Positions 3,387 through 32,599 of a stretch of 64,000 bases of DNA are shown here, piece by piece (the first letter of the stretch is position 1; every line of letters starts with the position of its first letter). The DNA lies in contig JBKJTY010000035.1 in NCBI GenBank assembly GCA_046590235.1, forward strand, positions 14,722 to 78,721, in the 5' to 3' direction. The notes beneath the pieces were generated by a model. The model did not search any database. It was not told where the DNA came from and saw only the letters and a list, made by a program, of their open reading frames with translations. The position numbers and the translations under genes were made by a program. The DNA comes from Candidatus Magasanikiibacteriota bacterium (GTDB lineage: Bacteria; Patescibacteriota; Patescibacteriia; Magasanikbacterales; GWA2-37-8).

Positions 3387-3779
3387 ATGAGCAAAAAAAT
3401 TGGTATACTATCTCTACTTATTCTCTTAACGGGGCTCGGCTGTAAGCCGGCCCCGGAGCAAACCATACCACCTGCACAGCAGGCGGTAACATCTACTGCC
3501 TCAGCGCAAGAGCTTAGAACTAAACAGGTAACCGCTGAATATCAAATACTGCAGCAAGCAGCCGTTGCCGACACTGATCTAGACGGACTGTCAAATGAAG
3601 AAGAAAAGAAGTTTGGAACCAATGTAAAAAATGCAGATTCGGACGGAGACGGTCTTTTGGATGGAGATGAAATAAAAACATTCAAAACAAATCCGATTAA
3701 TGCAGATACTGACAGTGATGGAAAGAAAGATGGTCAAGAAATTAAAAGCGGTGGTAATCCGCTTGATAGTAAAAAATAA
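3387..3779 (+). CDS. lipoprotein with Asp-rich Ca-binding (thrombospondin type 3-like) repeats
   Basis: Signal peptide with a lipobox (LLTGLGC). Repeats DTDLDGLSNEEE, DSDGDGLLDGDE and DTDSDGKKDGQE. Confidence 0.55.
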   Translation: MSKKIGILSLLILLTGLGCKPAPEQTIPPAQQAVTSTASAQELRTKQVTAEYQILQQAAVADTDLDGLSNEEEKKFGTNVKNADSDGDGLLDGDEIKTFKTNPINADTDSDGKKDGQEIKSGGNPLDSKK

Positions 3780-3780
3780 T

Positions 3781-4530
3781 ATGTTTGACGAAAAACCACC
3801 AAAAACTTTCGAAGCACCCGGTAATGTTCCGACTGAACCAGCAGACATGTTTGCTGGTATTAAAGATGAGTCTGACGACTCGTCAGGTCGTTTACCAGAC
3901 GCATTATCTTCTGGGCTATTAAAAAAGAAAGAATCATCCATGTCAGTAATGCCTGATGTGTCTGGTGGTAACCAAAGTGGTATGACCATGCAGGCAACTG
4001 GCACTTCTGGTTTTGTTAAAGCGTTTATCGGCTTAGCCATCATTGTGGTTGTAGCAGGACTTGGCGCGGGTGGTTGGTGGTTATATAAAACAGCACAAGA
4101 TTCATCTGTACCGGCTACAGTGCAGCAACAAAATGAAACAGAGTCTCCAGTAATTACAGAATCGCCGGTTGTAACGACTTCACCCGAACCAGAACAGCCA
4201 GCTACGGTGTTTGCATCATCTTCAACTCGTACTAATAATGATAGTATATTGTTTGGAACAATGATTGACACAGATAAAGATGGTATCAATGATGTGCAAG
4301 AAAGAGAGATTGGTACGGACCCAGTAAAGAGCGATACTGATGAAGATCAGTTAAATGACGGCGACGAAATGTTTATCTGGAAAACTAACCCGCTAAAAGC
4401 TGATACCGATGGCGATAGTTATCTAGATGGTGCGGAAATTAAAAACGGTTTTACCCCGCTCGGTCCTGGTCGGTTAGTTCCAACCACAAGTACAACAACT
4501 ACAGTTAAAACTTCCTCCACCATTCAATAA
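3781..4530 (+). CDS. membrane-anchored protein with C-terminal TSP3-like Ca-binding repeats
   Basis: The ATG at 3781 immediately follows the upstream stop. It has one TM segment (FIGLAIIVVVAGLGAGGWWLY) and repeats DTDKDGINDVQE, DTDEDQLNDGDE and DTDGDSYLDGAE. Confidence 0.5.
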   Translation: MFDEKPPKTFEAPGNVPTEPADMFAGIKDESDDSSGRLPDALSSGLLKKKESSMSVMPDVSGGNQSGMTMQATGTSGFVKAFIGLAIIVVVAGLGAGGWWLYKTAQDSSVPATVQQQNETESPVITESPVVTTSPEPEQPATVFASSSTRTNNDSILFGTMIDTDKDGINDVQEREIGTDPVKSDTDEDQLNDGDEMFIWKTNPLKADTDGDSYLDGAEIKNGFTPLGPGRLVPTTSTTTTVKTSSTIQ

Positions 4531-10166: not shown

Positions 10167-11603
10167 ATGTTCAAGCATACCAAAATTGGTGCGACAATTG
10201 GTCCGTCATGTGAAAGCATGGCTACTTTAGAGCAAATGGTTAAAGCGGGCATGAATTTTGCTCGACTTAATTTTGCGCATGGCACCTACGAATCACACGC
10301 TGTACTCATTAAAAGTATTCGTGCAGTAGAGAAGAAAACAGGGGAGCCTATAGCTATTCTTCAAGATCTTCAAGGACCGCGTATTCGCATTGGTGCCCTT
10401 CCGGACGCTGGTGTTGATGTAAAAAAAGGGGAAGTGATTGCTTTTAATACCAAAAATACAAAATATAATGGGAAACACATTCCAGTCGATCATCGTGAAT
10501 TACATAAGTTTATCAAAAAAGGACATCGTATTTTAATTGATGACGGTCGTATTGAATGTGAGGTGACAAAGGTTGCGGGCACGGTCGTCACAGCAGAAGT
10601 AACTCAGGAAGGTGTTATCAAATCCCATAAAGGCATCAACCTTCCAGACAGTAAATTAAAGATTCCTGCTCTTAGTGATAAAGATAAATCTGATTTACAA
10701 TTCGGTGTTATTGCAGGGGTTGATATGATAGGTTTATCTTTTGTTAGTACGGCAAAAGATATTAAGGACGTCAGAAAATTAATTGCCAAGTTTTCCAAAG
10801 AAGAAAAGATTGATATCCAGCCAATCGCAATCATTGCCAAGATCGAACGCGTTGAAGCGGTTAAAAATATTAAATCAATTATTGCTGAAGCTGACGGTAT
10901 CATGGTTGCTCGTGGTGATTTAGGTTTAGAGCTTCCAACCGGCGAAGTACCAATTATTCAAAAAAGAATTATTGAAGAATGTAACCGCCAAGCAAAACCA
11001 GTAATGGTAGCGACGCAGCTCCTCAATTCCATGCAGACCAGCAAACGTCCAACCCGTGCTGAAGCGAGTGATGTTGCAAATGCGGTTATTGATCACGCTG
11101 ACGCATTACTTCTTACAAATGAAACAGCTAGCGGTGACTACCCGGTGTTAGCTGTCGCAACAATGTCCTCGATCATCTTTAGTACCGAAAGTTCTGTTTA
11201 TGATGATTTAGCACACGCACCACTCCATAAAAAAGGTCTTCCAATTGATGAGGCTATAGTTGATATGGTAAAACTTCTCACCGATGAAGTTAAGGCCCAT
11301 GTAATCCTCGGCGCAACCAAAACCGGCCTATCCGCTCGCCTCCTCAGTCACGTCCGCCCAGCACTGCCACTAGTAATCGCCACCGATCGTGAAATCATCT
11401 GGCGACAAATAAATATCTCCTGGGGTGTTAAACCAATCCTTTTAAGAGAGCTTCCGGTCAGTAGCGAGCGATTTCTCAAGCTAGCAGAAGACTACCTCCG
11501 CACCAACAAACAAATTAAAACCGGACAAAAACTCGTTGTCGTCCTCGGTGAACCAGTCGGCGAAGCAGGCAGAGTCAACATGGTAGAACTTATAACAGTC
11601 TAA
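10167..11603 (+). CDS. pyk: pyruvate kinase
   Basis: N-terminal TKIGATIGPSCESMATLEQMVKAGMNFARLNFAHG, 478 aa, PK barrel plus C-terminal domain. Confidence 0.85.
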   Translation: MFKHTKIGATIGPSCESMATLEQMVKAGMNFARLNFAHGTYESHAVLIKSIRAVEKKTGEPIAILQDLQGPRIRIGALPDAGVDVKKGEVIAFNTKNTKYNGKHIPVDHRELHKFIKKGHRILIDDGRIECEVTKVAGTVVTAEVTQEGVIKSHKGINLPDSKLKIPALSDKDKSDLQFGVIAGVDMIGLSFVSTAKDIKDVRKLIAKFSKEEKIDIQPIAIIAKIERVEAVKNIKSIIAEADGIMVARGDLGLELPTGEVPIIQKRIIEECNRQAKPVMVATQLLNSMQTSKRPTRAEASDVANAVIDHADALLLTNETASGDYPVLAVATMSSIIFSTESSVYDDLAHAPLHKKGLPIDEAIVDMVKLLTDEVKAHVILGATKTGLSARLLSHVRPALPLVIATDREIIWRQINISWGVKPILLRELPVSSERFLKLAEDYLRTNKQIKTGQKLVVVLGEPVGEAGRVNMVELITV

Positions 11604-11628
11604 AAAACCAGCCGCTCGGCTGGTTTTG
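11604..11628 (+). terminator. rho-independent terminator after pyk
   Basis: aaaaaaCCAGCCgctcGGCTGGtttt directly after the stop codon. Confidence 0.55.
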
Positions 11629-11868
11629 TCATTCACAATAAAATGTCATTCAGAGCGAAGCGTGGAATCTTCCTATTGTTCAATCTACCATTTTTACTTC
11701 ACTATCGTTCTTTTATTCTCTTACTGTTGCACAGTTTGCTTGTCACTTTCTTTATAACTAAAGGAAGGTAACCCCTGCCTGCCGGCAGGCAGGAAAGAAA
11801 GTTTCGGGGGAAAGTAAAACTCGGCTGCGGCCTCAAACAGTTACTTTCCCCCGAACCCCCTAGCGAGT
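11629..11868. repeat. Copy a of a duplicated ~230-nt structured intergenic element (R1). It carries an inserted 20-bp palindrome at 11775-11794.
   Basis: About 85% identical over ~170 nt to 21659-21830 (gtcattcacaataaaatgtcattcagagcgaagcgtggaatcttcctattgttcaat...). The 3' stem gggggaaagtaa...ttacttccccc is replaced in copy b by gggggttgctca...tgagcagcccc, a compensatory change. Confidence 0.6.
11775..11794. repeat. 20-bp perfect palindrome CCTGCCTGCCGGCAGGCAGG (mini-insertion; second copy at 19211-19230)
   Basis: Present after GTAACC in R1 copy a, but absent at the corresponding site of R1 copy b (gtaacc|aaaagaaag at about 21798-21806). Confidence 0.6.
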
Positions 11869-11873
11869 GATTA

Positions 11874-13118
11874 TTAAAGAGTTGGGTAAAGAGGAAATTT
11901 CTTTGTTAACTCCTTAACAGAATTACGGATGTCGAGAAGTTTTGCTTCGTCTTTTGAATTCATAATAGTTTCATCAATCCAAGCTGCAACTAATTCCATC
12001 TCAGCTTCCTTCATGCCACGCGTAGTAAGTGCTGGAGTACCCAAGCGAATACCTGAAGGATCCATTGGAGAACGAGGATCATCTGGAATCATATTCTTAT
12101 TAACCGTAATGCCAGCCTTATCAAGTGCAACCTGCGCTTCTTTTCCAGAAAGACCTTTTTTTGTTACATCAATTAAGAGAAGGTGGTTATCAGTGCCACC
12201 ATGGCAAAGCGCATAACCTTTAGCGCGAAATACATTTTCTAAAACCTTCGCATTTTTCTTAATTTGCAAAGCGTATTCTTTAAACGCTGGCTCAAGGGCT
12301 TCCTTGAAGGATACAGCTTTAGCCGCAATATTGTTTTCGTGTGGACCACCCTGAAGGCCTGGGAAAACAGACTTATCAATCGCTGCTGCATGAATTTTTT
12401 TGCACATAATCATGCCACCTCGAGGCCCACGAAGGGTTTTGTGGGTGGTTGTAGTGACAACATCAAAGAGGGGAACCGGATTGTTCATTTGTCCACCGGC
12501 AATGAGGCCGGCAATGTGGGCGATGTCAGCCATAGTGAGCGCGCCAACTTCGTCAGCAATCTTTTTAATCGCTTCGTATTCAATTTCGCGAGAATAAGCA
12601 GAGTAACCAACTAAGATCATTTTTGGTTTGTGCTCGAGTGCCATTGCGCGAAGGTTGTCGAGGTCAATCTTGCCTTCAGCGTTTGTCTTATAACGGATAA
12701 AGTTAAAAATCTTGGCCATCGCTGTGACCGGGTGGCCGTGGGTCAAATGTCCGCCGTGGGACAAGTCCATACCAAGCACAGTGTCGCCCGGCTTCAAAAG
12801 TGCAAAGTAAACAGCAATATTAGCAGGAGCGCCCGAGAGAGGTTGCACATTCACGTGTTCAGCACCAAAAAGTTCCTTCGCACGATCAATTGCGAGCTGT
12901 TCCACTTGGTCAATATATTCGCAACCACCATAATACCGTTTGCCAACGTAACCTTCAGAATACTTGTTAGTCAAAACAGAACCAAGTGCTTCAAGAACAG
13001 CAGGGGAGACAAAGTTCTCTGATGGAATCATCTCCAAACCTTCTTCCTGGCGCTCCTGTTCGAGTTTAATACTTTTTAAAACGTCTGGGTCAAATTCTTT
13101 TAATGTTTGGGTGTGCAT
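11874..13118 (-). CDS. glyA: serine hydroxymethyltransferase
   Basis: [25 protein letters not shown], a PLP fold, 414 aa. Confidence 0.9.
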
Positions 13119-13227: not shown

Positions 13228-13257
13228 TAAAAAAGTAGCTGGAAAGCTACTTTTTTA
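13228..13257. terminator. bidirectional terminator hairpin at the elp3 3' end
   Basis: aaaaaaGTAGCTggaaAGCTACtttttt overlaps the elp3 stop codon. Confidence 0.5.
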
Positions 13258-14902
13258 ATGTTTTAACCATATAAGTCTTCTCGAGTTTGTAGCCCCATTT
13301 GCGGTAATAACCACGAACGCCCACACCCGATATAACTGCCAGTTTATCAACTTTACTTTTCTTAACAATTTTTTCCGCCTGCAACACCAACTTTCTTCCT
13401 AAACCTTTATGCTGTGTAGATTCTTTCTGCTGCTTGCCGATACGCACTAGCTGGCCATAAGTATGAAGCTCGCGAATATACGCGCCATATGAGTTTAACT
13501 TTTTATTAGGATGGATAACTGGAACGGTAACTACACGCAAGCGACAGAAAGCAAACACTACTTGGCGCTTCTTATCTTCGTAGCTAATAAAATATTCAAT
13601 ACCACCACGAGTTTCGTATTCATCAATAAACAAAACCGGTTCGAGTTGTTTTGCTGTCCAACCGTCAGTATTCACGTGTCCGATTTCACGACAGCGCAAA
13701 CATTTGCACGTAGTACCATCTTTCTTCATTTCCATTTCAATTACTTGGCGAAGGTTGGTGACCTTGTTACCTTCTTCAATGTATTGGCCTGGAATATCAC
13801 GGATCAAGCGTGAGACACGGGAATAGCGAGGGAGGTGGCTTTTAAATGTTTTGATAATATCGATCAAGTCACGAGTTGGATATGCTTTGTATTTACCCTG
13901 CATAAACAAGTCGTACAATTCAGAACCCTTCACGACCGTGCAGGGGTAAATCTTAATCATATCTGGTTTAAATCCTGGATCAGTAAAAATACTTTCCATC
14001 ATCTCTAAGTCCATTTGCGGAGTAGCACCAGGTAATTGTGGCATCAAATGGAAGTCCACCTTATAGCCATAGTTACGGAGCAATTCAGTTGCTTCACGAG
14101 AACGCTCAGTTGTATGTCCGCGCTTGGTCAATGCTAAAACACGGTCGTCTGTATGCTGGATACCAAGTTCAAGGCGAGTACAGCCTTGTTCGCGCATCTG
14201 CCAAATAGTATGTTTGTTAATACAATCCGGGCGAGTTTCCAAGGTCAGGCCAATAATACGGTGTTTCGCACCTTCATTAAGTCTCTGTTGTTTATATAAT
14301 TCAGCTTTTAATTTTTCGAGCGAAGATGTTTCAGTCAGTTTAGTAAATTTCGGATTCTTTTTTCCGTAGGTATTGCACGCTTCAAATGATCGGAGGATAA
14401 ACCAATATTGGTAGGCGAGGGGATAGGAGTTCCAGGTACCGCCTTTAACAATGAATTCAATTTTATCAGTCGGATGTCCGTTATTTTCGAGCGCTTCAAT
14501 ACGACGGGCCATTTGCTCAAAGGGATCAAAATGTAACATGAGCGCGCGCATCGCGGCAGGCTCTTCAGACAAATAACTTTTCGGCATACGTTCGTCCAAT
14601 GGGCAATAGGTACATTCGCCAGGACATGGATATGGTTTAACTAAAGAAGTAACAATCGTAACACCAGATAATGTTCGGACGGCACGGCGCATTAACATTT
14701 TTTCAAGCGCCTTATTTTGAGTAATTCTTTTCTTCTTCAGCAAGGTATGGTAAACTCTCAAAAGTTCAGTTTTGGTCGGGAAACTCTTCTCACTTTTTAT
14801 ACCAGTCACCGTATCGCGTTTCAGGGTATTAAAAGCAGCCTCGTCTTTCGGGAGTTTAATAGCCGCAGCAAGAATAATTTTTTCAGCATTATGGTTAAGC
14901 AT
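13247..14902 (-). CDS. elp3: Elp3-family radical SAM/GNAT protein (tRNA U34 carboxymethyl-modification enzyme homolog)
   Basis: Radical-SAM cysteine cluster CPGECTYCP, a TIM-barrel radical-SAM region, and a C-terminal GNAT-like segment (QHKGLGRKLVLQAEKIV...). 551 aa. Confidence 0.7.
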   Translation of the reverse strand: MLNHNAEKIILAAAIKLPKDEAAFNTLKRDTVTGIKSEKSFPTKTELLRVYHTLLKKKRITQNKALEKMLMRRAVRTLSGVTIVTSLVKPYPCPGECTYCPLDERMPKSYLSEEPAAMRALMLHFDPFEQMARRIEALENNGHPTDKIEFIVKGGTWNSYPLAYQYWFILRSFEACNTYGKKNPKFTKLTETSSLEKLKAELYKQQRLNEGAKHRIIGLTLETRPDCINKHTIWQMREQGCTRLELGIQHTDDRVLALTKRGHTTERSREATELLRNYGYKVDFHLMPQLPGATPQMDLEMMESIFTDPGFKPDMIKIYPCTVVKGSELYDLFMQGKYKAYPTRDLIDIIKTFKSHLPRYSRVSRLIRDIPGQYIEEGNKVTNLRQVIEMEMKKDGTTCKCLRCREIGHVNTDGWTAKQLEPVLFIDEYETRGGIEYFISYEDKKRQVVFAFCRLRVVTVPVIHPNKKLNSYGAYIRELHTYGQLVRIGKQQKESTQHKGLGRKLVLQAEKIVKKSKVDKLAVISGVGVRGYYRKWGYKLEKTYMVKTLKK

Positions 14903-16657: not shown

Positions 16658-16804
16658 TTCTTTTTTCCTCCCGGTCGGCCAGGTATGTGTACCTGGCCGA
16701 CCGCGGAGTTCAATCTGAACGATAAGCTATTTTTAAAAAATGGTTTACCGGTCCGATTGACCTACGACTACCATACCGGTGGTCTAAACAAAGGAGTAGT
16801 TCGC

Positions 16805-18225: not shown

Positions 18226-19209
18226 ATGAAGAAAAAATTACTTGTCGTAGGAATTATTTTAACTGCATTGCTCGCCGGGTATATAAGCCTATTTTTTATC
18301 GACACATCAAGTCAGGATATTCGCTATGGTATTAGTTTTGATCCAGATTACGCACGATATATTAATAAAGATGCAGGTAAGGCGTATATGACCACACTAA
18401 ATGATTGGCATTTTAAATTAATCCGTTTACCGGTGCACTGGGATGTTATTGAAAAAAAACAAGGTACATTTGATTTCAGCGACATCGATTGGTATGTTGA
18501 TCGAGCAAAAGATAGTGGGGCAAAAGTGATTTTGTCTATCGGTCAAAAAACACCACGCTGGCCAGAGTGTCATATTCCAACGTGGACTAAAGAATTGGAC
18601 CAGGCAGAATATATCGCTGCGGTTAAAAGCTATTTAGAGGCCGCTGTTGTGCATTACCGTGGTAATCCGGCATTAGAAATGTGGCAAGTTGAAAACGAAC
18701 CTTTTTTACATTTTGGTAACTGTCCAACAGTTACAACTGGCGATTTACATTCCGAAATTACACTCGTAAAAAAACTTGACCCAAACCATCCTACGCTTGT
18801 AGGGGACAGCGGTGAACTAAGTAGCTGGCTGGTAACCGGTACTGCGGGAGATTATTTTGGTACAACTGTATACCGCTTGGTTTACAATAAATACTTTGGC
18901 TACCTTAATTATGATTTCCTTCCTGCCGCATTCTACCGTTTAAAGCTATGGTTAGTAGGTAGAGAACCATCAAAAGCCTTCTTGTTGGAGTTGCAAGCGG
19001 AACCTTGGCTCACTGAAAAGCCCTTTAAAGAAGTTGCGCTTGAGGAGCAATATCAATCAATGAATTTGAATCGTTTAGAAAACAACATTTCCTACGCGCA
19101 ACAGATTGGTTTAAGCCGGGTATATCTCTGGGGTGCGGAGTGGTGGTATTGGCTTTTGGAACAAGGTATTCATGATATTCCGGATTATGTAAAAACTCTC
19201 CCCAAGTAA
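18226..19209 (+). CDS. membrane-anchored TIM-barrel glycoside hydrolase (GH5-like NEP catalytic motif)
   Basis: N-terminal TM segment. The sequence reads HWDVIE...KVILSIGQKTPRWP...EMWQVENEP, where the ENEP motif is typical of clan GH-A acid/base sites. Confidence 0.45.
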   Translation: MKKKLLVVGIILTALLAGYISLFFIDTSSQDIRYGISFDPDYARYINKDAGKAYMTTLNDWHFKLIRLPVHWDVIEKKQGTFDFSDIDWYVDRAKDSGAKVILSIGQKTPRWPECHIPTWTKELDQAEYIAAVKSYLEAAVVHYRGNPALEMWQVENEPFLHFGNCPTVTTGDLHSEITLVKKLDPNHPTLVGDSGELSSWLVTGTAGDYFGTTVYRLVYNKYFGYLNYDFLPAAFYRLKLWLVGREPSKAFLLELQAEPWLTEKPFKEVALEEQYQSMNLNRLENNISYAQQIGLSRVYLWGAEWWYWLLEQGIHDIPDYVKTLPK

Positions 19210-19210
19210 C

Positions 19211-19230
19211 CCTGCCTGCCGGCAGGCAGG
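19211..19230. repeat. second copy of the 20-bp palindrome CCTGCCTGCCGGCAGGCAGG
   Basis: An exact copy of 11775-11794, here immediately after GTAAC of the hydrolase stop codon context. Confidence 0.6.
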
Positions 19231-19276
19231 CGTTGACTTCTTTAAGTATTTAAGCTATACTGAAGAAGCTTTAAAA

Positions 19277-19350
19277 GCGCACTTAGCTCAGTTGGTTAGA
19301 GCATCTCGTTTACACCGAGAGGGTCGAGGGTTCGAATCCCCCAGTGCGCA
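19277..19350 (+). tRNA. tRNA-Val (anticodon TAC)
   Basis: Acceptor stem GCGCACT/AGTGCGC, D-arm GCTC..GAGC, anticodon stem TCTCG/CGAGA with loop TTTACAC, T-loop TTCGAAT. No CCA is encoded. There is one A-C mismatch in the T-stem. Confidence 0.8.
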
Positions 19351-19356
19351 CGTATG

Positions 19357-19389
19357 AAAATAGCAGCTTAACGCTGTTGTTTTTTTATT
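19357..19389 (+). terminator. terminator module T (left direct repeat of the islet)
   Basis: aaaatAGCAGCttaacGCTGTTgttttttt; an almost identical copy is at 21619-21648 and a variant at 20604-20634. Confidence 0.55.
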
Positions 19390-19463
19390 CCTACTTCATT
19401 CGAGCACCATGTCGTGCACAATAAAAACACATTCGTTTAATCGAGTGTGTTTTGTTGTGTGTA

Positions 19464-19492
19464 TTGACAAAATTGCATTTTATTGCTATACT
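19464..19492 (+). promoter_or_regulatory. promoter TTGACA-N17-TATACT for cassette A
   Basis: TTGACA at 19464-19469, TATACT at 19487-19492. Confidence 0.5.
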
Positions 19493-19554
19493 ATGCCGTT
19501 GGGATTAATTTCTCAACACAACCATAAACGTTTTTTACAACCCAAGGAGTAGTG

Positions 19555-20412
19555 ATGGAAAAGGTGCGTGCCGTAGCGGTTCTGTTGTTCATGTTTACAA
19601 CCTCCAACCTTGCCATCGCGGCAGAGAAAGAGCTCTCGATTCCCAAGGATCAGCTAGCCCTGCTCGACAAGGCCAGGAAGGCCCTCGTCAAGATCGCCGC
19701 CAAGAGCGACCGTGCGAAAGGGTTGTTGGCTTTGTACAACAACCACGCAGTTCCGGCCCTTACCGATAGCGACCAGGTTCGGATCGTTTCCATCCCGAAG
19801 GTGGTGCCGTACTTTTTTGTGGCGGCGAACCCGCGGGTTGAGACGCAAGTCTCGAATGAGGGTGGAACATTCGCCTATTTTAACTGTACTGAACAGCCGA
19901 GCTTGCTCTTGAAGAATTTCCCGACTGTCTCAGAAACGGTCCATGGCATTATGCTGGCCCACGAGTTGGTGCATGCTGAGGACTGCCTGTTCGGAGGCGA
20001 GGGGGCAAATAAACAGCATGATGATGCTTGGTTGATCGGCGAATTGCATGCGCACAACACTGTCTGGATGCTGCTTAACGACATCTCCGACGGAGGTTGG
20101 AATAAGGTTGTGACAGGTTCTCTCCGTCGGCGAATGCAGATGATGAGCGCCGGCCAGGACAACCCGAAAGCAATGGTCTTCGGATATTCTACAGATGATA
20201 TCGTGAGCATTGAAAAAATGTTCGGTGCCCAAGATGATGTCGCAATCGGCGCCTTGATTGCCCAACTCCAGGTTGATGTGAACATGCTCAAAATCGCGCT
20301 CAATACACCTGGCAGCGGCGTGCTCTACGACGTGTCTCCTGAACTGGCAGAAAATCAGTTGAGGTTAGTCAAAGCGTTCTACAAAGAGAACGAACAAGCT
20401 ATTCAGCAGTAG
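19555..20412 (+). CDS. secreted protein with an HExxH-like motif (possible metallopeptidase-like), GC-rich cassette A
   Basis: RBS AAGGAG; signal peptide (AVAVLLFMFTTSNLAIAAE); motif AHELVHAED; GC-rich codon usage. The ORF track's first M is a GTG at 19552. Confidence 0.5.
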   Translation: MEKVRAVAVLLFMFTTSNLAIAAEKELSIPKDQLALLDKARKALVKIAAKSDRAKGLLALYNNHAVPALTDSDQVRIVSIPKVVPYFFVAANPRVETQVSNEGGTFAYFNCTEQPSLLLKNFPTVSETVHGIMLAHELVHAEDCLFGGEGANKQHDDAWLIGELHAHNTVWMLLNDISDGGWNKVVTGSLRRRMQMMSAGQDNPKAMVFGYSTDDIVSIEKMFGAQDDVAIGALIAQLQVDVNMLKIALNTPGSGVLYDVSPELAENQLRLVKAFYKENEQAIQQ

Positions 20413-20430
20413 CGGTTTCTTCGCAAACCG

Positions 20431-20634
20431 CCACGGTCCCGGATACTCAGGGGATCGTGGCGAGTAGGGTCAAAAAACCACCTACAAACTCACGAAGTTT
20501 TCAAGCGATTGGAAATTTCATGAGTAGGTGGTTTTTTAATTCCAACCACCGCTTTATTTCTCTAACCATGGTGTTCCATCGAGCACCCACGTCGTGCACA
20601 CATGAAAATAACAGTGTTTAGCTGTTATTTTTTT
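20431..20634 (+). repeat. structured 3' repeat unit of cassette A (modules S1 stem-loop, S2 long hairpin, M motif, T terminator)
   Basis: S1 is ccacggtccc...gggatcgtgg. S2 is aaaaaaccacctac-38 nt-gtaggtggtttttt. M is ggtgttccatcgagcacccacgtcgtgcaca. T is aaaataacagtgtttagctgttattttttt. All four are repeated after cassette B. Confidence 0.55.
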
Positions 20635-20656
20635 GTCTTCACACAAGCTTCAATCC

Positions 20657-20685
20657 TTGACAATGGATCAAAAATTAATTACACT
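20657..20685 (+). promoter_or_regulatory. promoter TTGACA-N17-TACACT for cassette B
   Basis: TTGACA at 20657-20662, TACACT at 20680-20685. Confidence 0.45.
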
Positions 20686-20734
20686 GTCACAGCCCTTTTC
20701 CAATGAAACCTTCTATCCCTTGGAGAAATAAACG

Positions 20735-21424
20735 ATGCGTGCAATTATTTTCACGATCTTCATTGCTGCTCTGCAGCCGTTGGGTGAGCAGCCTATAAAA
20801 TCACAAGCACCTTTAGCGGAAGAAAAGACAGCCTCTTTGGCTTGTAAGAACGGTCAGGAAGGGCTCAAGAACACGAAAGGATCGCCGTGGTGGTGGATTA
20901 ATAAGATCAATCGGAATTGCGACGCAGAAGCAAGTCGTGAAGCCTACCGTGCAAACTGGGAGCGTTTTCGGACAACTTTCCCAGTTGCGGCAGCTTGGAT
21001 GGCTATGCAGTTAGACTATGTAGTCGACGCAACAATCATCCAGAAAGACCTGTTGTCAGGCTTCGTAACAAACGTAAACTTTGATTCTGACGCAATTGAT
21101 CCAGAAATGGCACAAAAAATACTCGAAAGATTAAAGGGTTATGGTGCCATAATTTCTGCCGAATCAAAACCAATCATTGTGACGGTAACCAGCGTGTTCG
21201 ACAAGCCGGATTGGTCAGAAGCAGACAAGTACCGATACGTCTTTGCCTGCAAGTTTTCTCAAGTGGTGATGGAGTATGGAGCCTTCAAGGTAATTGCTGA
21301 TGCCGCCGATGAAGTCGTAGTGCCAGACATTTACATGAAAATGGGAGATTGTCACGAGTTAATGACAGTCATCCCCGAGTTGGTAGAAAATATCGTGGCT
21401 GAATACCGCAAGCAGAACAAATGA
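20735..21424 (+). CDS. secreted hypothetical protein, GC-rich cassette B
   Basis: Signal peptide MRAIIFTIFIAALQP; GC-rich; no recognisable motif. Confidence 0.5.
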   Translation: MRAIIFTIFIAALQPLGEQPIKSQAPLAEEKTASLACKNGQEGLKNTKGSPWWWINKINRNCDAEASREAYRANWERFRTTFPVAAAWMAMQLDYVVDATIIQKDLLSGFVTNVNFDSDAIDPEMAQKILERLKGYGAIISAESKPIIVTVTSVFDKPDWSEADKYRYVFACKFSQVVMEYGAFKVIADAADEVVVPDIYMKMGDCHELMTVIPELVENIVAEYRKQNK

Positions 21425-21438
21425 ACATGTCAAAAAGT

Positions 21439-21648
21439 CACCGCGATCCCGGATACTCTGGGGGTCGTGGTGGGAGCTAAAAAACCACCTACAAACTCAT
21501 AAGTTTTTCAAGTAATTGGAAACTTCATGAGTAGGTGGTTTTTTATTTCAACACTTCCAACCATCGCCTAATCTCAACAACCACGGTGTTCCATCGAGCA
21601 CCCACGTCGTGCACATATAAAATAGCAGCTTAATGCTGTTGTTTTTTT
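21439..21648 (+). repeat. structured 3' repeat unit of cassette B (S1, S2, M, T). The T copy is the right direct repeat of the islet.
   Basis: Modules are colinear with 20431-20634. The S1 stem has compensatory changes (caccgcgatccc/ggggtcgtggtg versus ccacggtccc/gggatcgtgg). Confidence 0.55.
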
Positions 21649-21658
21649 ATACCCACAA

Positions 21659-21870
21659 GGTGTCACTCGCAATAAAATGTCATCCAGAGCGGAGCGTGGG
21701 ATCTTCCTATTATTCAATTTTACTTCGCTATCGTTCTTTCTTATTTTTCACTCTTGCACAGTCCGCTTGTCACTTTTCTTTGTAACCAAAGCAAAGTAAC
21801 CAAAAGAAAGTTTCGGGGGTTGCTCAGACTCGCCTCGGCTCAGACAGTGAGCAGCCCCAGAACCCCAACT
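21659..21870. repeat. copy b of structured element R1 (lacks the 20-bp palindrome)
   Basis: Aligns with 11629-11868 and carries the compensatory 3' stem. Confidence 0.6.
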
Positions 21871-21933: not shown

Positions 21934-24069
21934 ATGTTTATGCAAAAAAGTAAAAGGATTTCGACGCTATCAATCGCGTTACTTAGTTTGCTTTCTTTGG
22001 CAACTTCACTATTTAATCCAATAGCAGCGTCAGCGCTTGAAACATGGACTGAACGTCGGCCTGAAGGCATCGATGGCGATAATACTTGGGAAGGTGCTAG
22101 CGATGCTGATGGGTCAAACCTGATCGCAATAAACACAGCTGGTGAATTATTCATTTCGACAGATAGTGGTGTTAGCTGGAATCCGACTAATCCAGTACTA
22201 GATTCTGAAAATTGGAGCACGGTAGCATCTGATGCAGATGGTTCAAATTTAATTGTTGCACGCAATGGTCGTGCTTACATTACGACTAATGGCGGTTCTA
22301 GCTGGGCTGAAACACAACCAGCAGGGGATACAGATAAGTTGTGGATAACTGTTGGTAGTGATGCTGACGGCTCCACACTTATGGCAGCTGCTAGTTTTGG
22401 TCGTTTGTACATCTCTGCAAACGGTGGTACTACATGGACCGAACGCCAGCCAGCTGGAGATGTTAATAGTAGTTGTCAAAGCATGGTATCAGACACTACT
22501 GGTACTAATCTTTTTGTTCAATGTGCGAACCGTCTTTATACTTCAACTGATGGTGGTGTCAATTGGACTGAACGCCAGCCTATGGGTAATACAAATTTTT
22601 TTGCGAGAGATCTTGCTTCTGATGCGACAGGTTTAAAACTTGTTGCGGGCGTTGAAGGTGGTCGCCTGTATACGTCAGCCGACGGTGGCGCTACATGGAC
22701 CGAGCGTCAACCTGCTGGGGATACAAATCAACAGTGGGTAGGACTTGATTCGGGTGCAGATGGCACACATTTGATCGCAGCGGCGAACTCTGGTCGTTTG
22801 TACACATCCTCAGATAGCGGTGTTACTTGGACTGAGCGCCGGCCAGCAGGTGATGTAGATATAGGATGGAGATTTGCGGCCATGGGCGGTAATTTTACTT
22901 TCTTTGTAGGTGCAAATAATGGTAGGTTGTATACGGGTATTATAGATGAAGCCGGCCCAATAATTACCACTTACTCCCCAGCTGACAATGCTACCGATGT
23001 TGCTGTTACTGCCAATCTCACTATCACCCTAGATAGCACCTTCGTCACCGGAACAAACAAAAATATTATCATTAAAAAATCTTCTGACGATAGTATTGTT
23101 GAAACAATTTCAGTTAGCAGTAGTCAAGTAATCGCAAGTGGTTTAGAAATTACCATTAATCCAAGCGCATCTTTGAGCTATAGTACAAGCTACTATGTCC
23201 AAATGGACGCTGGTGCGTTCCAAGACGCCTATAGCAATGACATGCTAGCTATCTCCAATACAACAACCTGGAACTTTACAACTGTCGCCGCACCACGAGT
23301 TGGTGGTGGCGGATATAGTCCACCACTCGTTTCCACACCAGTCGCGCCTGTAATCACCATGCCAATTTACGAACCACCCCTCATCCCCAATCCAGCGGAT
23401 CCGGTAACAATCTCACCAATAAACATTGCGCCACCTATTATTGTGCAACCTGTCATTGCTCCTGTTGCACCAGTCATTACGCCGGTGGTCGTTGTTCCAG
23501 AAGTAACAACCCCTGTTGTCGTCACGCCTGTCTCAGCCCCGCTCATTACTGCGCCACCAATCCAAGTTAAACTCCTCAACCCAGGCATCCGCTCAGTAGA
23601 AGTGTTAAATCTTCAAAAAACACTTAACCAACTCGGTTATACTGTTGCACAAACTGGTCCTGGCTCAATCGGCAATGAAACAAATTTCTTCGGTAAAGCC
23701 ACCTATAACGCGCTTCTGAATTTCCAAAAATTAAATAATTTGCCAACAACCGGTATTGCCGATAAAGCTACAATAGAAACAATCAATCAAAAGTCTGTTA
23801 CAGGAGAAGTACTAGGTGTAAAACTCATTAAATTTACACGCAACTTAGCAACCGGCAGTAATGGCGATGATGTTAAACGCTTACAGCAGTGGCTTAATGC
23901 CAACGGCTTCACGGTCGCGGAGTCAGGTCCTGGCTCTGTTGGTAAAGAAACTAAACAGTTCGGTAAAGCAACCCGCGAAGCACTCAAACGCTTCCAAAAG
24001 GATAGTGGTGAAAAAGAAACGGGAATCTTTAGCGTAAACACAAAAGAGAAGATTAATGGAATGCTCTAA
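21934..24069 (+). CDS. secreted BNR/Asp-box beta-propeller protein with an Ig-like domain, a Pro-rich linker and two C-terminal peptidoglycan-binding domains
   Basis: Signal peptide. At least six Sx[DN]xGxxW repeats (STDSGVSWN, TTNGGSSWA, SANGGTTWT, STDGGVNWT, SADGGATWT, SSDSGVTWT). Pro/Val linker. Two PG_binding_1-like repeats (LQKTLNQLGYTV..., VKRLQQWLNANGFTV...). Confidence 0.65.
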   Translation: MFMQKSKRISTLSIALLSLLSLATSLFNPIAASALETWTERRPEGIDGDNTWEGASDADGSNLIAINTAGELFISTDSGVSWNPTNPVLDSENWSTVASDADGSNLIVARNGRAYITTNGGSSWAETQPAGDTDKLWITVGSDADGSTLMAAASFGRLYISANGGTTWTERQPAGDVNSSCQSMVSDTTGTNLFVQCANRLYTSTDGGVNWTERQPMGNTNFFARDLASDATGLKLVAGVEGGRLYTSADGGATWTERQPAGDTNQQWVGLDSGADGTHLIAAANSGRLYTSSDSGVTWTERRPAGDVDIGWRFAAMGGNFTFFVGANNGRLYTGIIDEAGPIITTYSPADNATDVAVTANLTITLDSTFVTGTNKNIIIKKSSDDSIVETISVSSSQVIASGLEITINPSASLSYSTSYYVQMDAGAFQDAYSNDMLAISNTTTWNFTTVAAPRVGGGGYSPPLVSTPVAPVITMPIYEPPLIPNPADPVTISPINIAPPIIVQPVIAPVAPVITPVVVVPEVTTPVVVTPVSAPLITAPPIQVKLLNPGIRSVEVLNLQKTLNQLGYTVAQTGPGSIGNETNFFGKATYNALLNFQKLNNLPTTGIADKATIETINQKSVTGEVLGVKLIKFTRNLATGSNGDDVKRLQQWLNANGFTVAESGPGSVGKETKQFGKATREALKRFQKDSGEKETGIFSVNTKEKINGML

Positions 24070-24123
24070 ACTTCATTACTAAAAAATAATGGCTTTAATA
24101 AGCCATTATTTTTTTGTTTATCC

Positions 24124-30046: not shown

Positions 30047-30069
30047 CATCTGTTTCCTATCGAAACGCA

Positions 30070-30113
30070 CTGGGGAGAAATGAGCTTATAGTATAAGGCT
30101 CATTTCTCCCCAG
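30070..30113 (+). promoter_or_regulatory. perfect 16-bp stem-loop in the 5' leader of the GC-rich ORF
   Basis: CTGGGGAGAAATGAGC-ttatagtataag-GCTCATTTCTCCCCAG, between the promoter and the start codon. Confidence 0.5.
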
Positions 30114-30146
30114 CACGTTACGGCGATGGGGCGCCAAGGGGACCAA

Positions 30147-32524: not shown

Positions 32525-32599
32525 TGTCATTCCCGCGCAGGCGGGAATCCAGTATACCAACGATATGTGTCCTGGATTCCCGCCTACGCGGGAATGACA
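32525..32599. terminator. large inverted repeat (28-nt arms, each with an internal palindrome); bidirectional terminator/cruciform between convergent genes
   Basis: tgtcattcccgcgcaggcgggaatccag ... ctggattcccgcctacgcgggaatgaca. Confidence 0.55.

Follow-up and report, generated by a model that had tools for sequence, protein, structure and literature searches.

Two copies of a non-coding element lie in the 64,000-nt stretch of contig JBKJTY010000035.1 analysed here (the window), which belongs to Candidatus Magasanikbacteria of the Patescibacteria, or candidate phyla radiation (CPR); the best serine hydroxymethyltransferase (SHMT) homologues bear that name. The copies, termed A and B, are both intergenic, have the same orientation and are about 10 kb apart. 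With moderate confidence, they are read as a lineage-specific interspersed mosaic palindromic repeat resembling bacterial interspersed mosaic elements (BIMEs) and repetitive extragenic palindromic (REP) sequences, or miniature inverted-repeat transposable elements (MITEs). The duplication is genuine, as are the paired differences between the copies in a terminal hairpin (H3). From 5' to 3', the element starts with a block containing a 25-nt palindrome-arm motif, continues with a spacer rich in pyrimidines, a small hairpin (H2) and an optional 20-nt palindrome, and closes with the terminal hairpin of 12-15 bp, whose loop is conserved. The best-supported interpretation is that hairpin modules have been gained and replaced independently of each other, beside terminators. 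A sequence-only reading of this DNA had presented the element as a candidate structured RNA and had listed a small RNA (sRNA), a 3' untranslated region (3'UTR) element and a MITE-like element as candidates; the last comes nearest to what the evidence favours, and the RNA-gene headline is not sustained.

Comparison by MAFFT, BLASTN and a repeat search placed both copies within a few bases of the positions first claimed for them (11629-11868 and 21659-21870). In approximately 207 aligned columns, 168 are identical, 21 differ by transitions and 15-18 by transversions, an identity of approximately 81% that replaces the earlier figure of approximately 85% over 170 nt; the BLASTN match has 81% identity in a 150-nt segment and 76% in a subsequent segment of 66 nt. 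The first 58 nt have 90% identity, and all six differences in them are transitions. The longest exact run common to the two copies is 17 nt, and they have no 31-mer in common. Copy A has eight additional nucleotides near 11685, after TTCAAT, and a 20-nt palindrome where copy B has a gap. The ends of the element are TGTCAYTCRC on the left and GAACCCC on the right. A 29-nt pattern from the 5' block, expected zero times in shuffled sequence, occurs only in copies A and B, and no further copy was found in the window by BLASTN with 7-nt words, by patterns with three mismatches or by a covariance model.

The stem of H3 is formed in copy A by 12 perfect pairs between GGGGGAAAGTAA (11806-11817) and TTACTTTCCCCC (11841-11852), and in copy B by 11 pairs between GGGGGTTGCTCA and TGAGCAGCCCC, including one G-U pair on the plus strand. 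Five of the seven inner pairs are altered on both sides between the copies, with pairing kept and no pair broken, so that the base-pair-preserving differences first noticed in the 3' portion of approximately 55 nt are real and exceed chance. The conserved parts of the hairpin are the G/C base of the stem, the loop context ACTCG...TCA[AG]ACAG, which is present in both copies as had been reported, and the flanks AAAGAAAGTTTC and GAACCCC. An inner small hairpin, also reported for both copies, is found in the loop of copy A (a GGC/GCC mini-stem of 3 bp, 11823-11832) and is doubtful in copy B, where its counterpart would have a loop of 2 nt. Folded as DNA, H3 of copy A has a free energy of -16.3 kcal/mol (z = -4.2); the stability of H3 in copy B is modest (z = -1.6 for the plus strand, -0.56 for the minus strand).

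The significance of the paired differences was assessed by placing equal numbers of transitions and transversions randomly in copy A and rerunning RNAalifold, in 300 trials. Eight pairs are changed on both sides between the real copies, a number reached in none of the trials (maximum six, mean approximately 1.7). The excess is due to H3; the three double-sided changes elsewhere are within the range of the null distribution. Covariation between the copies had been taken as the mark of a functional RNA, and its signal is one contiguous block of five pairs in one hairpin. The rest of the element is only 10-19% diverged, and a palindrome arm that was replaced or corrected accounts for such a block of five adjacent pairs more simply than stepwise covariation of an RNA. 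Template switching during replication is documented to create and repair perfect stems, and one such event can introduce compensatory changes of several bases at once (PMC8794818). The 8-mer GCTCAGAC is found twice in copy B, at the end of the 5' arm (21822-21829) and at the end of the loop (21838-21845), with no equivalent in copy A; the 3' arm of copy B is able to pair with either occurrence, which may be the footprint of a templated mutation or may form an alternative local hairpin. This direct repeat is compatible with templated mutation, and selection for a recognised hairpin is equally compatible with the block of paired differences. Two sequences cannot separate selection at the RNA level from maintenance of a palindrome at the DNA level.

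The 20-nt palindrome CCTGCCTGCCGGCAGGCAGG, which copy A accommodates between H2 and H3, has a second copy in the window, between the stop codon of a glycosyl-hydrolase gene and the promoter of tRNA-Val. At the corresponding site in the relative L018, the palindrome is missing and 4 nt are present versus 23 nt in the window. GTAACC is found directly 5' of CCTGCCTGCCGGCAGGCAGG at both sites, and must have been in the element before the palindrome arrived because copy B has GTAACC without the palindrome. The nested palindrome is thus a separate insertion, and its GTAACC context suggests target-specific insertion of a tiny REP-like unit.

The 25-nt motif of the 5' block (GTCATTCAGAGCGAAGCGTGGAATC in copy A; also written GTCATYCAGAGCGRAGCGTGGRATC) has a wider distribution than the element. 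When one genome per species was scanned for an exact 23-nt 5' pattern, matches came from 16 loci of unrelated taxa, among them a betaproteobacterial metagenome-assembled genome (MAG) of the Casimicrobiaceae, Falkowbacteria, Babeliales, a rumen bacterium and several gut MAGs, and one metagenome contig contains six copies. The motif is identical or nearly so across taxa (loci including L001-L016 and L023), and the 16 loci of the scan share only this generic motif, not the whole element. At L006, L011, L012 and L023, palindromic intergenic units of 65-85 nt have the motif, identical or with one or two changes, as a pair of inverted arms; at L012 it is associated with a terminator-type hairpin, and in Falkowbacteria the unit lies within a stem that has a T-run after it. 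The element of the window resembles these units in the motif and in its intergenic location, but differs in having one good arm, a degenerate inverted partner approximately 60 nt away (11727-11741) and then approximately 120 nt of unrelated modules. No name for the motif was found in Rfam or in the literature, where sequence matches were to unrelated primers. The motif may be a marker of some widespread system for mobilising hairpins.

Relative to the genes around them, the two copies are placed differently; what they share is that each starts 0-4 nt past a terminator hairpin. Copy A lies between the convergent genes pyk (10167-11603, plus strand) and glyA (11874-13118, minus strand), where it directly adjoins the T-tract of the terminator hairpin that serves both genes, is placed between that terminator and the glyA stop codon and is antisense in the 3' region of glyA. 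Copy B lies between two plus-strand genes, a 229-aa open reading frame (ORF) of no assigned function and a gene for a 711-aa surface protein (21934-24069), at the right edge of a variable region beside tRNA-Val; it ends approximately 35 nt before the extended -10-like box TGGTATAAT upstream of the latter gene. The terminator-like hairpin that precedes copy B is a duplicate of the hairpin that follows tRNA-Val (19357-19394; repeat search, 89% identity by BLASTN).

From the closest relatives that were available, with SHMT identity of 88-90%, the loci around glyA were fetched (approximately 150 kb in all). Throughout these loci, Elp3 and glyA face pyk, NrdR, FtsZ and FtsA, and glyA and pyk are convergent. 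The spacer between glyA and pyk is 270 nt long in the window, comprising copy A and the terminator. In L018-L021 it is 35 nt long and consists of one terminator hairpin with A- and T-tracts, the counterpart of that at 11604-11628; in L022 and L027 it is 122 nt long, a terminator-type hairpin with an insert of approximately 80 nt in its loop; in L028 it is 320 nt long and holds a 70-aa ORF; and in L024-L026 the sequence is unrelated over the 80 nt after glyA where the contigs end. No relative examined has the element at this site, a presence/absence polymorphism, and neither BLASTN nor the covariance model found it anywhere in the fetched loci. Because the relatives keep glyA and pyk convergent but have a spacer without the element, copy A is read as an insertion; the simplest history, as far as the compared sequences indicate, is that it was probably inserted in this lineage between the glyA stop codon and the older shared terminator. 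The orthologous site of copy B was sought through the 711-aa gene, whose best homologue has 44-52% identity over part of the protein, and no orthologue was found.

The hairpins with loop inserts (L022 11262-11370, L027 11289-11397) have the form AAAGGGATACTG...CAGTATCCCTTTTTT, and their inserts contain CTCGGCCGCGAGGCCTCA and CCGAACCC, which resemble the H3 loop and tail in the opposite orientation relative to glyA and could be a distant relative or a coincidence. When the relatives were searched with a fuzzy version of the H3 loop motif, the result was too noisy to be of use.

Table 1. Positions of the two copies, their modules and the adjacent hairpins in the window.
Feature	Position	Strand	Evidence or description
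Copy A of the repeat	11627-11859	+	Alignment and BLASTN versus copy B; covariance model, 291 bits
Copy B of the repeat	21661-21866	+	Alignment and BLASTN versus copy A; covariance model, 259 bits
25-nt motif GTCATTCAGAGCGAAGCGTGGAATC	11645-11669 (A), 21679-21703 (B)	+	Contig scan of species-representative genomes
Partner arm of helix H1	11727-11741	+	Inverted and degenerate version of a stretch of the 25-nt motif
Small hairpin H2 (CTTTA-TAAC-TAAAG core)	11742-11772 (A), 21769-21801 (B)	+	RNAalifold
Nested palindrome CCTGCCTGCCGGCAGGCAGG	11774-11793	none	20 nt, perfect; copy A only
Second copy of CCTGCCTGCCGGCAGGCAGG	19211-19230	none	BLASTN match 19206-19247
H3 of copy A	11803-11855	+	Stem 11803-11817 with 11841-11855
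H3 of copy B	21812-21862	+	Arms 21815-21826 (GGGGGTTGCTCA) and 21848-21858 (TGAGCAGCCCC)
Terminator hairpin AAAAAACCAGCCGCTCGGCTGGTTTT	11604-11628	none	A- and T-tracts on both sides; common to pyk and glyA
Terminator-like hairpin with T-run	21619-21656	+	Ends 4 nt 5' of copy B

A mosaic palindromic repeat of this kind would be copied at the DNA level by a process that acts on hairpins in single-stranded DNA, for which the candidate agents are an HUH/Y1 transposase acting in trans (of the REP/RAYT or IS200/IS605-like type) or recombination. The paired differences in H3 would then reflect maintenance of a palindrome, either by template-switch (quasipalindrome) correction or by selection; in the latter case, the hairpin, as single-stranded DNA or as RNA, would be recognised by its loop and base and not by its inner stem. 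Any effect at the RNA level would be secondary: for example, the minus-strand hairpin of copy A together with ACUUUCUUU could terminate or stabilise glyA mRNA.

The closest likeness is to the BIME and REP sequences of Enterobacteria and Pseudomonas, including the REPINs that are moved by RAYT. Like them, the element is extragenic, in positions often past gene ends or between convergent genes; it is a mosaic of imperfect palindromes and short motifs, with H2, the 20-nt palindrome and H3 in series; its palindromic units (here 11774-11793 and 19211-19230) are gained and lost independently; and it has a possible secondary role in mRNA 3'-end stability or termination. REP sequences have a conserved tetranucleotide at the foot, of which GTAACC on the 5' side of the window palindrome is reminiscent. 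The element differs from BIMEs in its longer unit (approximately 210-235 nt), its long pyrimidine-rich unstructured segment and its CPR host, and in that no RAYT or IS200-like gene is present among the ten ORFs scanned. BIME and REP sequences are dispersed through genomes in high copy number, and the 64 kb analysed here contain two copies of the element. It resembles MITEs (Correia/NEMIS, RUP, Nezha) in being small (100-300 nt), non-coding, intergenic, hairpin-forming and polymorphic for insertion, but its ends are not complementary, so that it lacks terminal inverted repeats; there is no target-site duplication, copy A being flanked by GGTTT and CTAGC and copy B by CAAGG and AACTC; and the sole inverted repeat that involves the 5' motif is internal and degenerate. 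Non-autonomous derivatives of IS200/IS605 elements likewise lack terminal inverted repeats and target duplications, have a subterminal hairpin at one end and occupy hairpin-rich or single-stranded contexts, whereas here the left flanks differ (GGTTT versus CAAGG) with no common 4-5-nt target, the 5' end has no significant hairpin, and no TnpA or TnpB gene was detected; a shared 5' flank in the style of IS200/IS605 is found only for the nested 20-nt palindrome (GTAACC). The element thus fails both the strict definition of a MITE and the IS200/IS605 pattern.

Several of these results weigh against the interpretation as a mobile palindromic repeat. Terminal inverted repeats and a target-site duplication are lacking, and the flanks of the two copies have no target motif in common; no transposase was found among the ten small or unassigned ORFs scanned with Pfam; only two copies are seen in 64 kb; and the intergenic DNA of the relatives is too diverged for exact insertion boundaries. 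No other copy was found in 185,579 species-representative genomes, JGI metagenomes, IMG/VR, plasmids and phages by scans that needed an exact short 5' pattern or BLAST-level similarity. Furthermore, all 41 consensus pairs of the fold discussed below are intact in both copies and G-U pairs are biased to the plus strand, as would also match a transcribed structured RNA. A transition-tolerant 34-nt pattern gave one unrelated match in metagenome contigs, and there was no match in a scan of viral contigs or by BLASTN to plasmids and phages. Over 230 kb (the window and the fetched loci), the covariance model recognised only the two copies and, on Logan contigs, truncated ends.

These truncated ends bear on the number of copies. 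Contigs that Logan assembled from the source sample (SRR31159418) break off inside copy A, the one with pyk (L030) at 11662 and the one with glyA (L017) at 11831, and another contig of this sample stops within repeats at 20.5 and 21.6 kb, which do have a 31-mer in common. The breaks in copy A are not due to copy B because copies A and B have no common 31-mer. If they are branches of the assembly graph, the breaks would require other sequences identical to copy A over at least 30 nt, a hint of further copies or strain variants. The contigs of the closest relative (90% SHMT identity; L024-L026) stop 80 nt past glyA, and L024 is recorded in 16 samples; contig stops in several lineages suggest that the glyA-pyk spacer contains repeated or polymorphic sequence.

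The alternative nearest to the sequence-only reading, that the copies are paralogous plus-strand genes for structured sRNAs, folded through helices H1 to H3 and with the loop or the C-rich tail (GAACCCC) as an interaction site, is unlikely. In its favour, RNAalifold predicts for the plus strand four helices with 41 consensus pairs, all of them kept in both copies, and the excess of double-sided changes over random trials was noted above; the H3 loop and flanks are conserved and the stem is variable; and full-length copy A folds better than shuffled sequences (z = -4.1). On the plus strand, G-U pairs occur at five pair positions (six copy-by-pair instances), versus one on the minus strand, counted within the shared helices, a distribution that points weakly to the plus strand. 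However, the advantage of full-length copy B over shuffles is marginal (z = -1.9), and windows over most of the 5' half of each copy (11640-11752, 21674-21780) fold no better than shuffles on either strand (z between +0.2 and +0.9). Helix H1, in which 11727-11741 pairs with 11653-11667 (12 pairs, one changed on both sides), is weak and was rejected as a real structure, as the folding statistics give it no support. H2 has 12 pairs, with one change of A-U to G-C on both sides and one of U-G to U-A. Beyond H3, folding and covariation are within chance.

Evidence of an RNA gene was also sought directly. At the gathering threshold of Rfam 15, tRNA-Val is the only match in the whole window, so that the covariance models that had been proposed as a check of the structured-RNA reading matched the element to no family; permissive scans of both loci gave chance matches below threshold, the best of 23 bits versus a threshold of 93. 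A scan for consensus promoters called none at either locus, nothing U-rich follows H3 on the plus strand, and neither strand has a promoter and a terminator together. In addition, both copies start right after a terminator, copy A tolerates a 20-nt palindrome between H2 and H3, and the element is a mosaic that is missing from the fetched loci of the relatives, including the orthologous spacer. The functional-RNA reading of the element is not supported by these results.

Other kinds of gene or element were tried and rejected. Small ORFs with ATG start codons, of 42 aa in copy A and 40 aa in copy B, begin in the 5' motif and have only their first 14 codons in common; indels of 8, 1 and 1 nt shift the frame, and a gene for a small protein or type I toxin was rejected. 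No homologues of the small ORFs were found, and an exact look-up found none of eight ORFs in the protein collection. A retron, a diversity-generating retroelement, a bridge RNA and an omega-RNA were rejected, there being no reverse transcriptase, IS110-type recombinase or TnpB evident beside either copy. Class C group II introns insert after terminators; a fragment of such an intron was rejected, as the sequence shows neither a GUGYG 5' end nor a hairpin like domain V.

A second alternative, decidedly unlikely, is that the element acts on the minus strand as a cis element of mRNA, H3 with ACUUUCUU(U/C) being a terminator or 3' stabiliser of glyA that was later duplicated. REP sequences of Escherichia coli have a reported role as 3'-end terminators or stabilisers. 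On the minus strand, H3 of copy A starts 19 nt past the glyA stop codon, with ACUUUCUUU after its stem; a U-rich tract (CUUUCUUU) follows the hairpin in both copies. Transcripts of glyA must enter the element because it is upstream of the older shared terminator. However, no gene on the minus strand lies upstream of copy B, and the minus-strand hairpin of this copy is like shuffles in stability (see above). Terminators elsewhere in the window are compact, whereas H3 has a loop of 21-23 nt (23 nt on this reading) and an interrupted U-tract, and H3 was not called by a terminator scan whose rules admit loops of 3-8 nt only. The relatives make do with the shared terminator alone.

A third alternative is that the copies are the inert remnant of one segmental duplication, whose complementarity persists through templated (quasipalindrome) mutation only. 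Consistent with this are the two known copies in direct orientation 10 kb apart, the lack of transposon hallmarks, the divergence of approximately 19% with several indels, and the other local duplications around copy B. It seems quite improbable, since the boundaries are sharp at both ends in two unrelated contexts, each beside a terminator; the assembly breaks in copy A would be left unexplained by copy B; and repeated insertion by a family of hairpin elements is indicated by both the nested palindrome and the cross-phylum motif. Least probable of all, and close to speculation, is an undescribed CPR family of hairpin RNAs or single-stranded DNA elements in which the conserved loop and flanks would be a recognition module for a partner protein, the inner stem a copy-specific determinant and GTCATYCAGAGCGRAGCGTGGRATC the handle by which a widespread system, directed at terminators, mobilises hairpins.

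Other features of the surroundings were observed. Between 19348 and 21656, the hairpin after tRNA-Val is doubled (19348-19394 versus 21611-21656, 89%), and between the duplicates are two units of approximately 1 kb, each composed of one ORF of no known function (19552-20412, 20735-21424) and a three-hairpin module of approximately 200 nt; the modules (20431-20634 versus 21441-21648) have 79% identity. The genes that follow tRNA-Val differ among the relatives, and 19348-21656 is therefore a variable, island-like region. In L022 (approximately 3662-4081) and L027 (approximately 3690-4108), on the minus strand, tRNA-Val is followed after approximately 150 nt by a second tRNA 3' end, TTCGAATCCCTTGGTGTGCACCA, which is the signature of an element integrated at a tRNA gene. 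Near-perfect intergenic palindromes of 40-75 nt are located at 32525-32599, 30061-30122, 24078-24117, 16668-16708, 20472-20537 and 21478-21545; they are probably long-stem bidirectional terminators, and those at 20472 and 21478 are copies of each other. The 711-aa surface-protein gene contains internal DNA repeats (22315-22463, 22398-22461, 22659-22722 and 22708-22856; 70-77% identity) that are consistent with repeated BNR/Sortilin-type domains. The gene at 13247-14902 encodes a full-length bacterial homologue of Elp3, a radical SAM/GNAT tRNA-modification enzyme (TIGR01211, E = 1.7e-160), and adjoins glyA in all Magasanikbacteria relatives examined.

The case is cautionary, in that two paralogous copies with a 'compensatory' block of changes in a DNA palindrome are no evidence for an RNA gene. 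The by-product most worth pursuing is the 25-nt motif that crosses phyla. No description of mosaic palindromic repeats of this kind was found for the Patescibacteria/CPR, and if the interpretation of copies A and B as such repeats is right, the small, streamlined genomes of this group would contain an ordinary class of genome feature.

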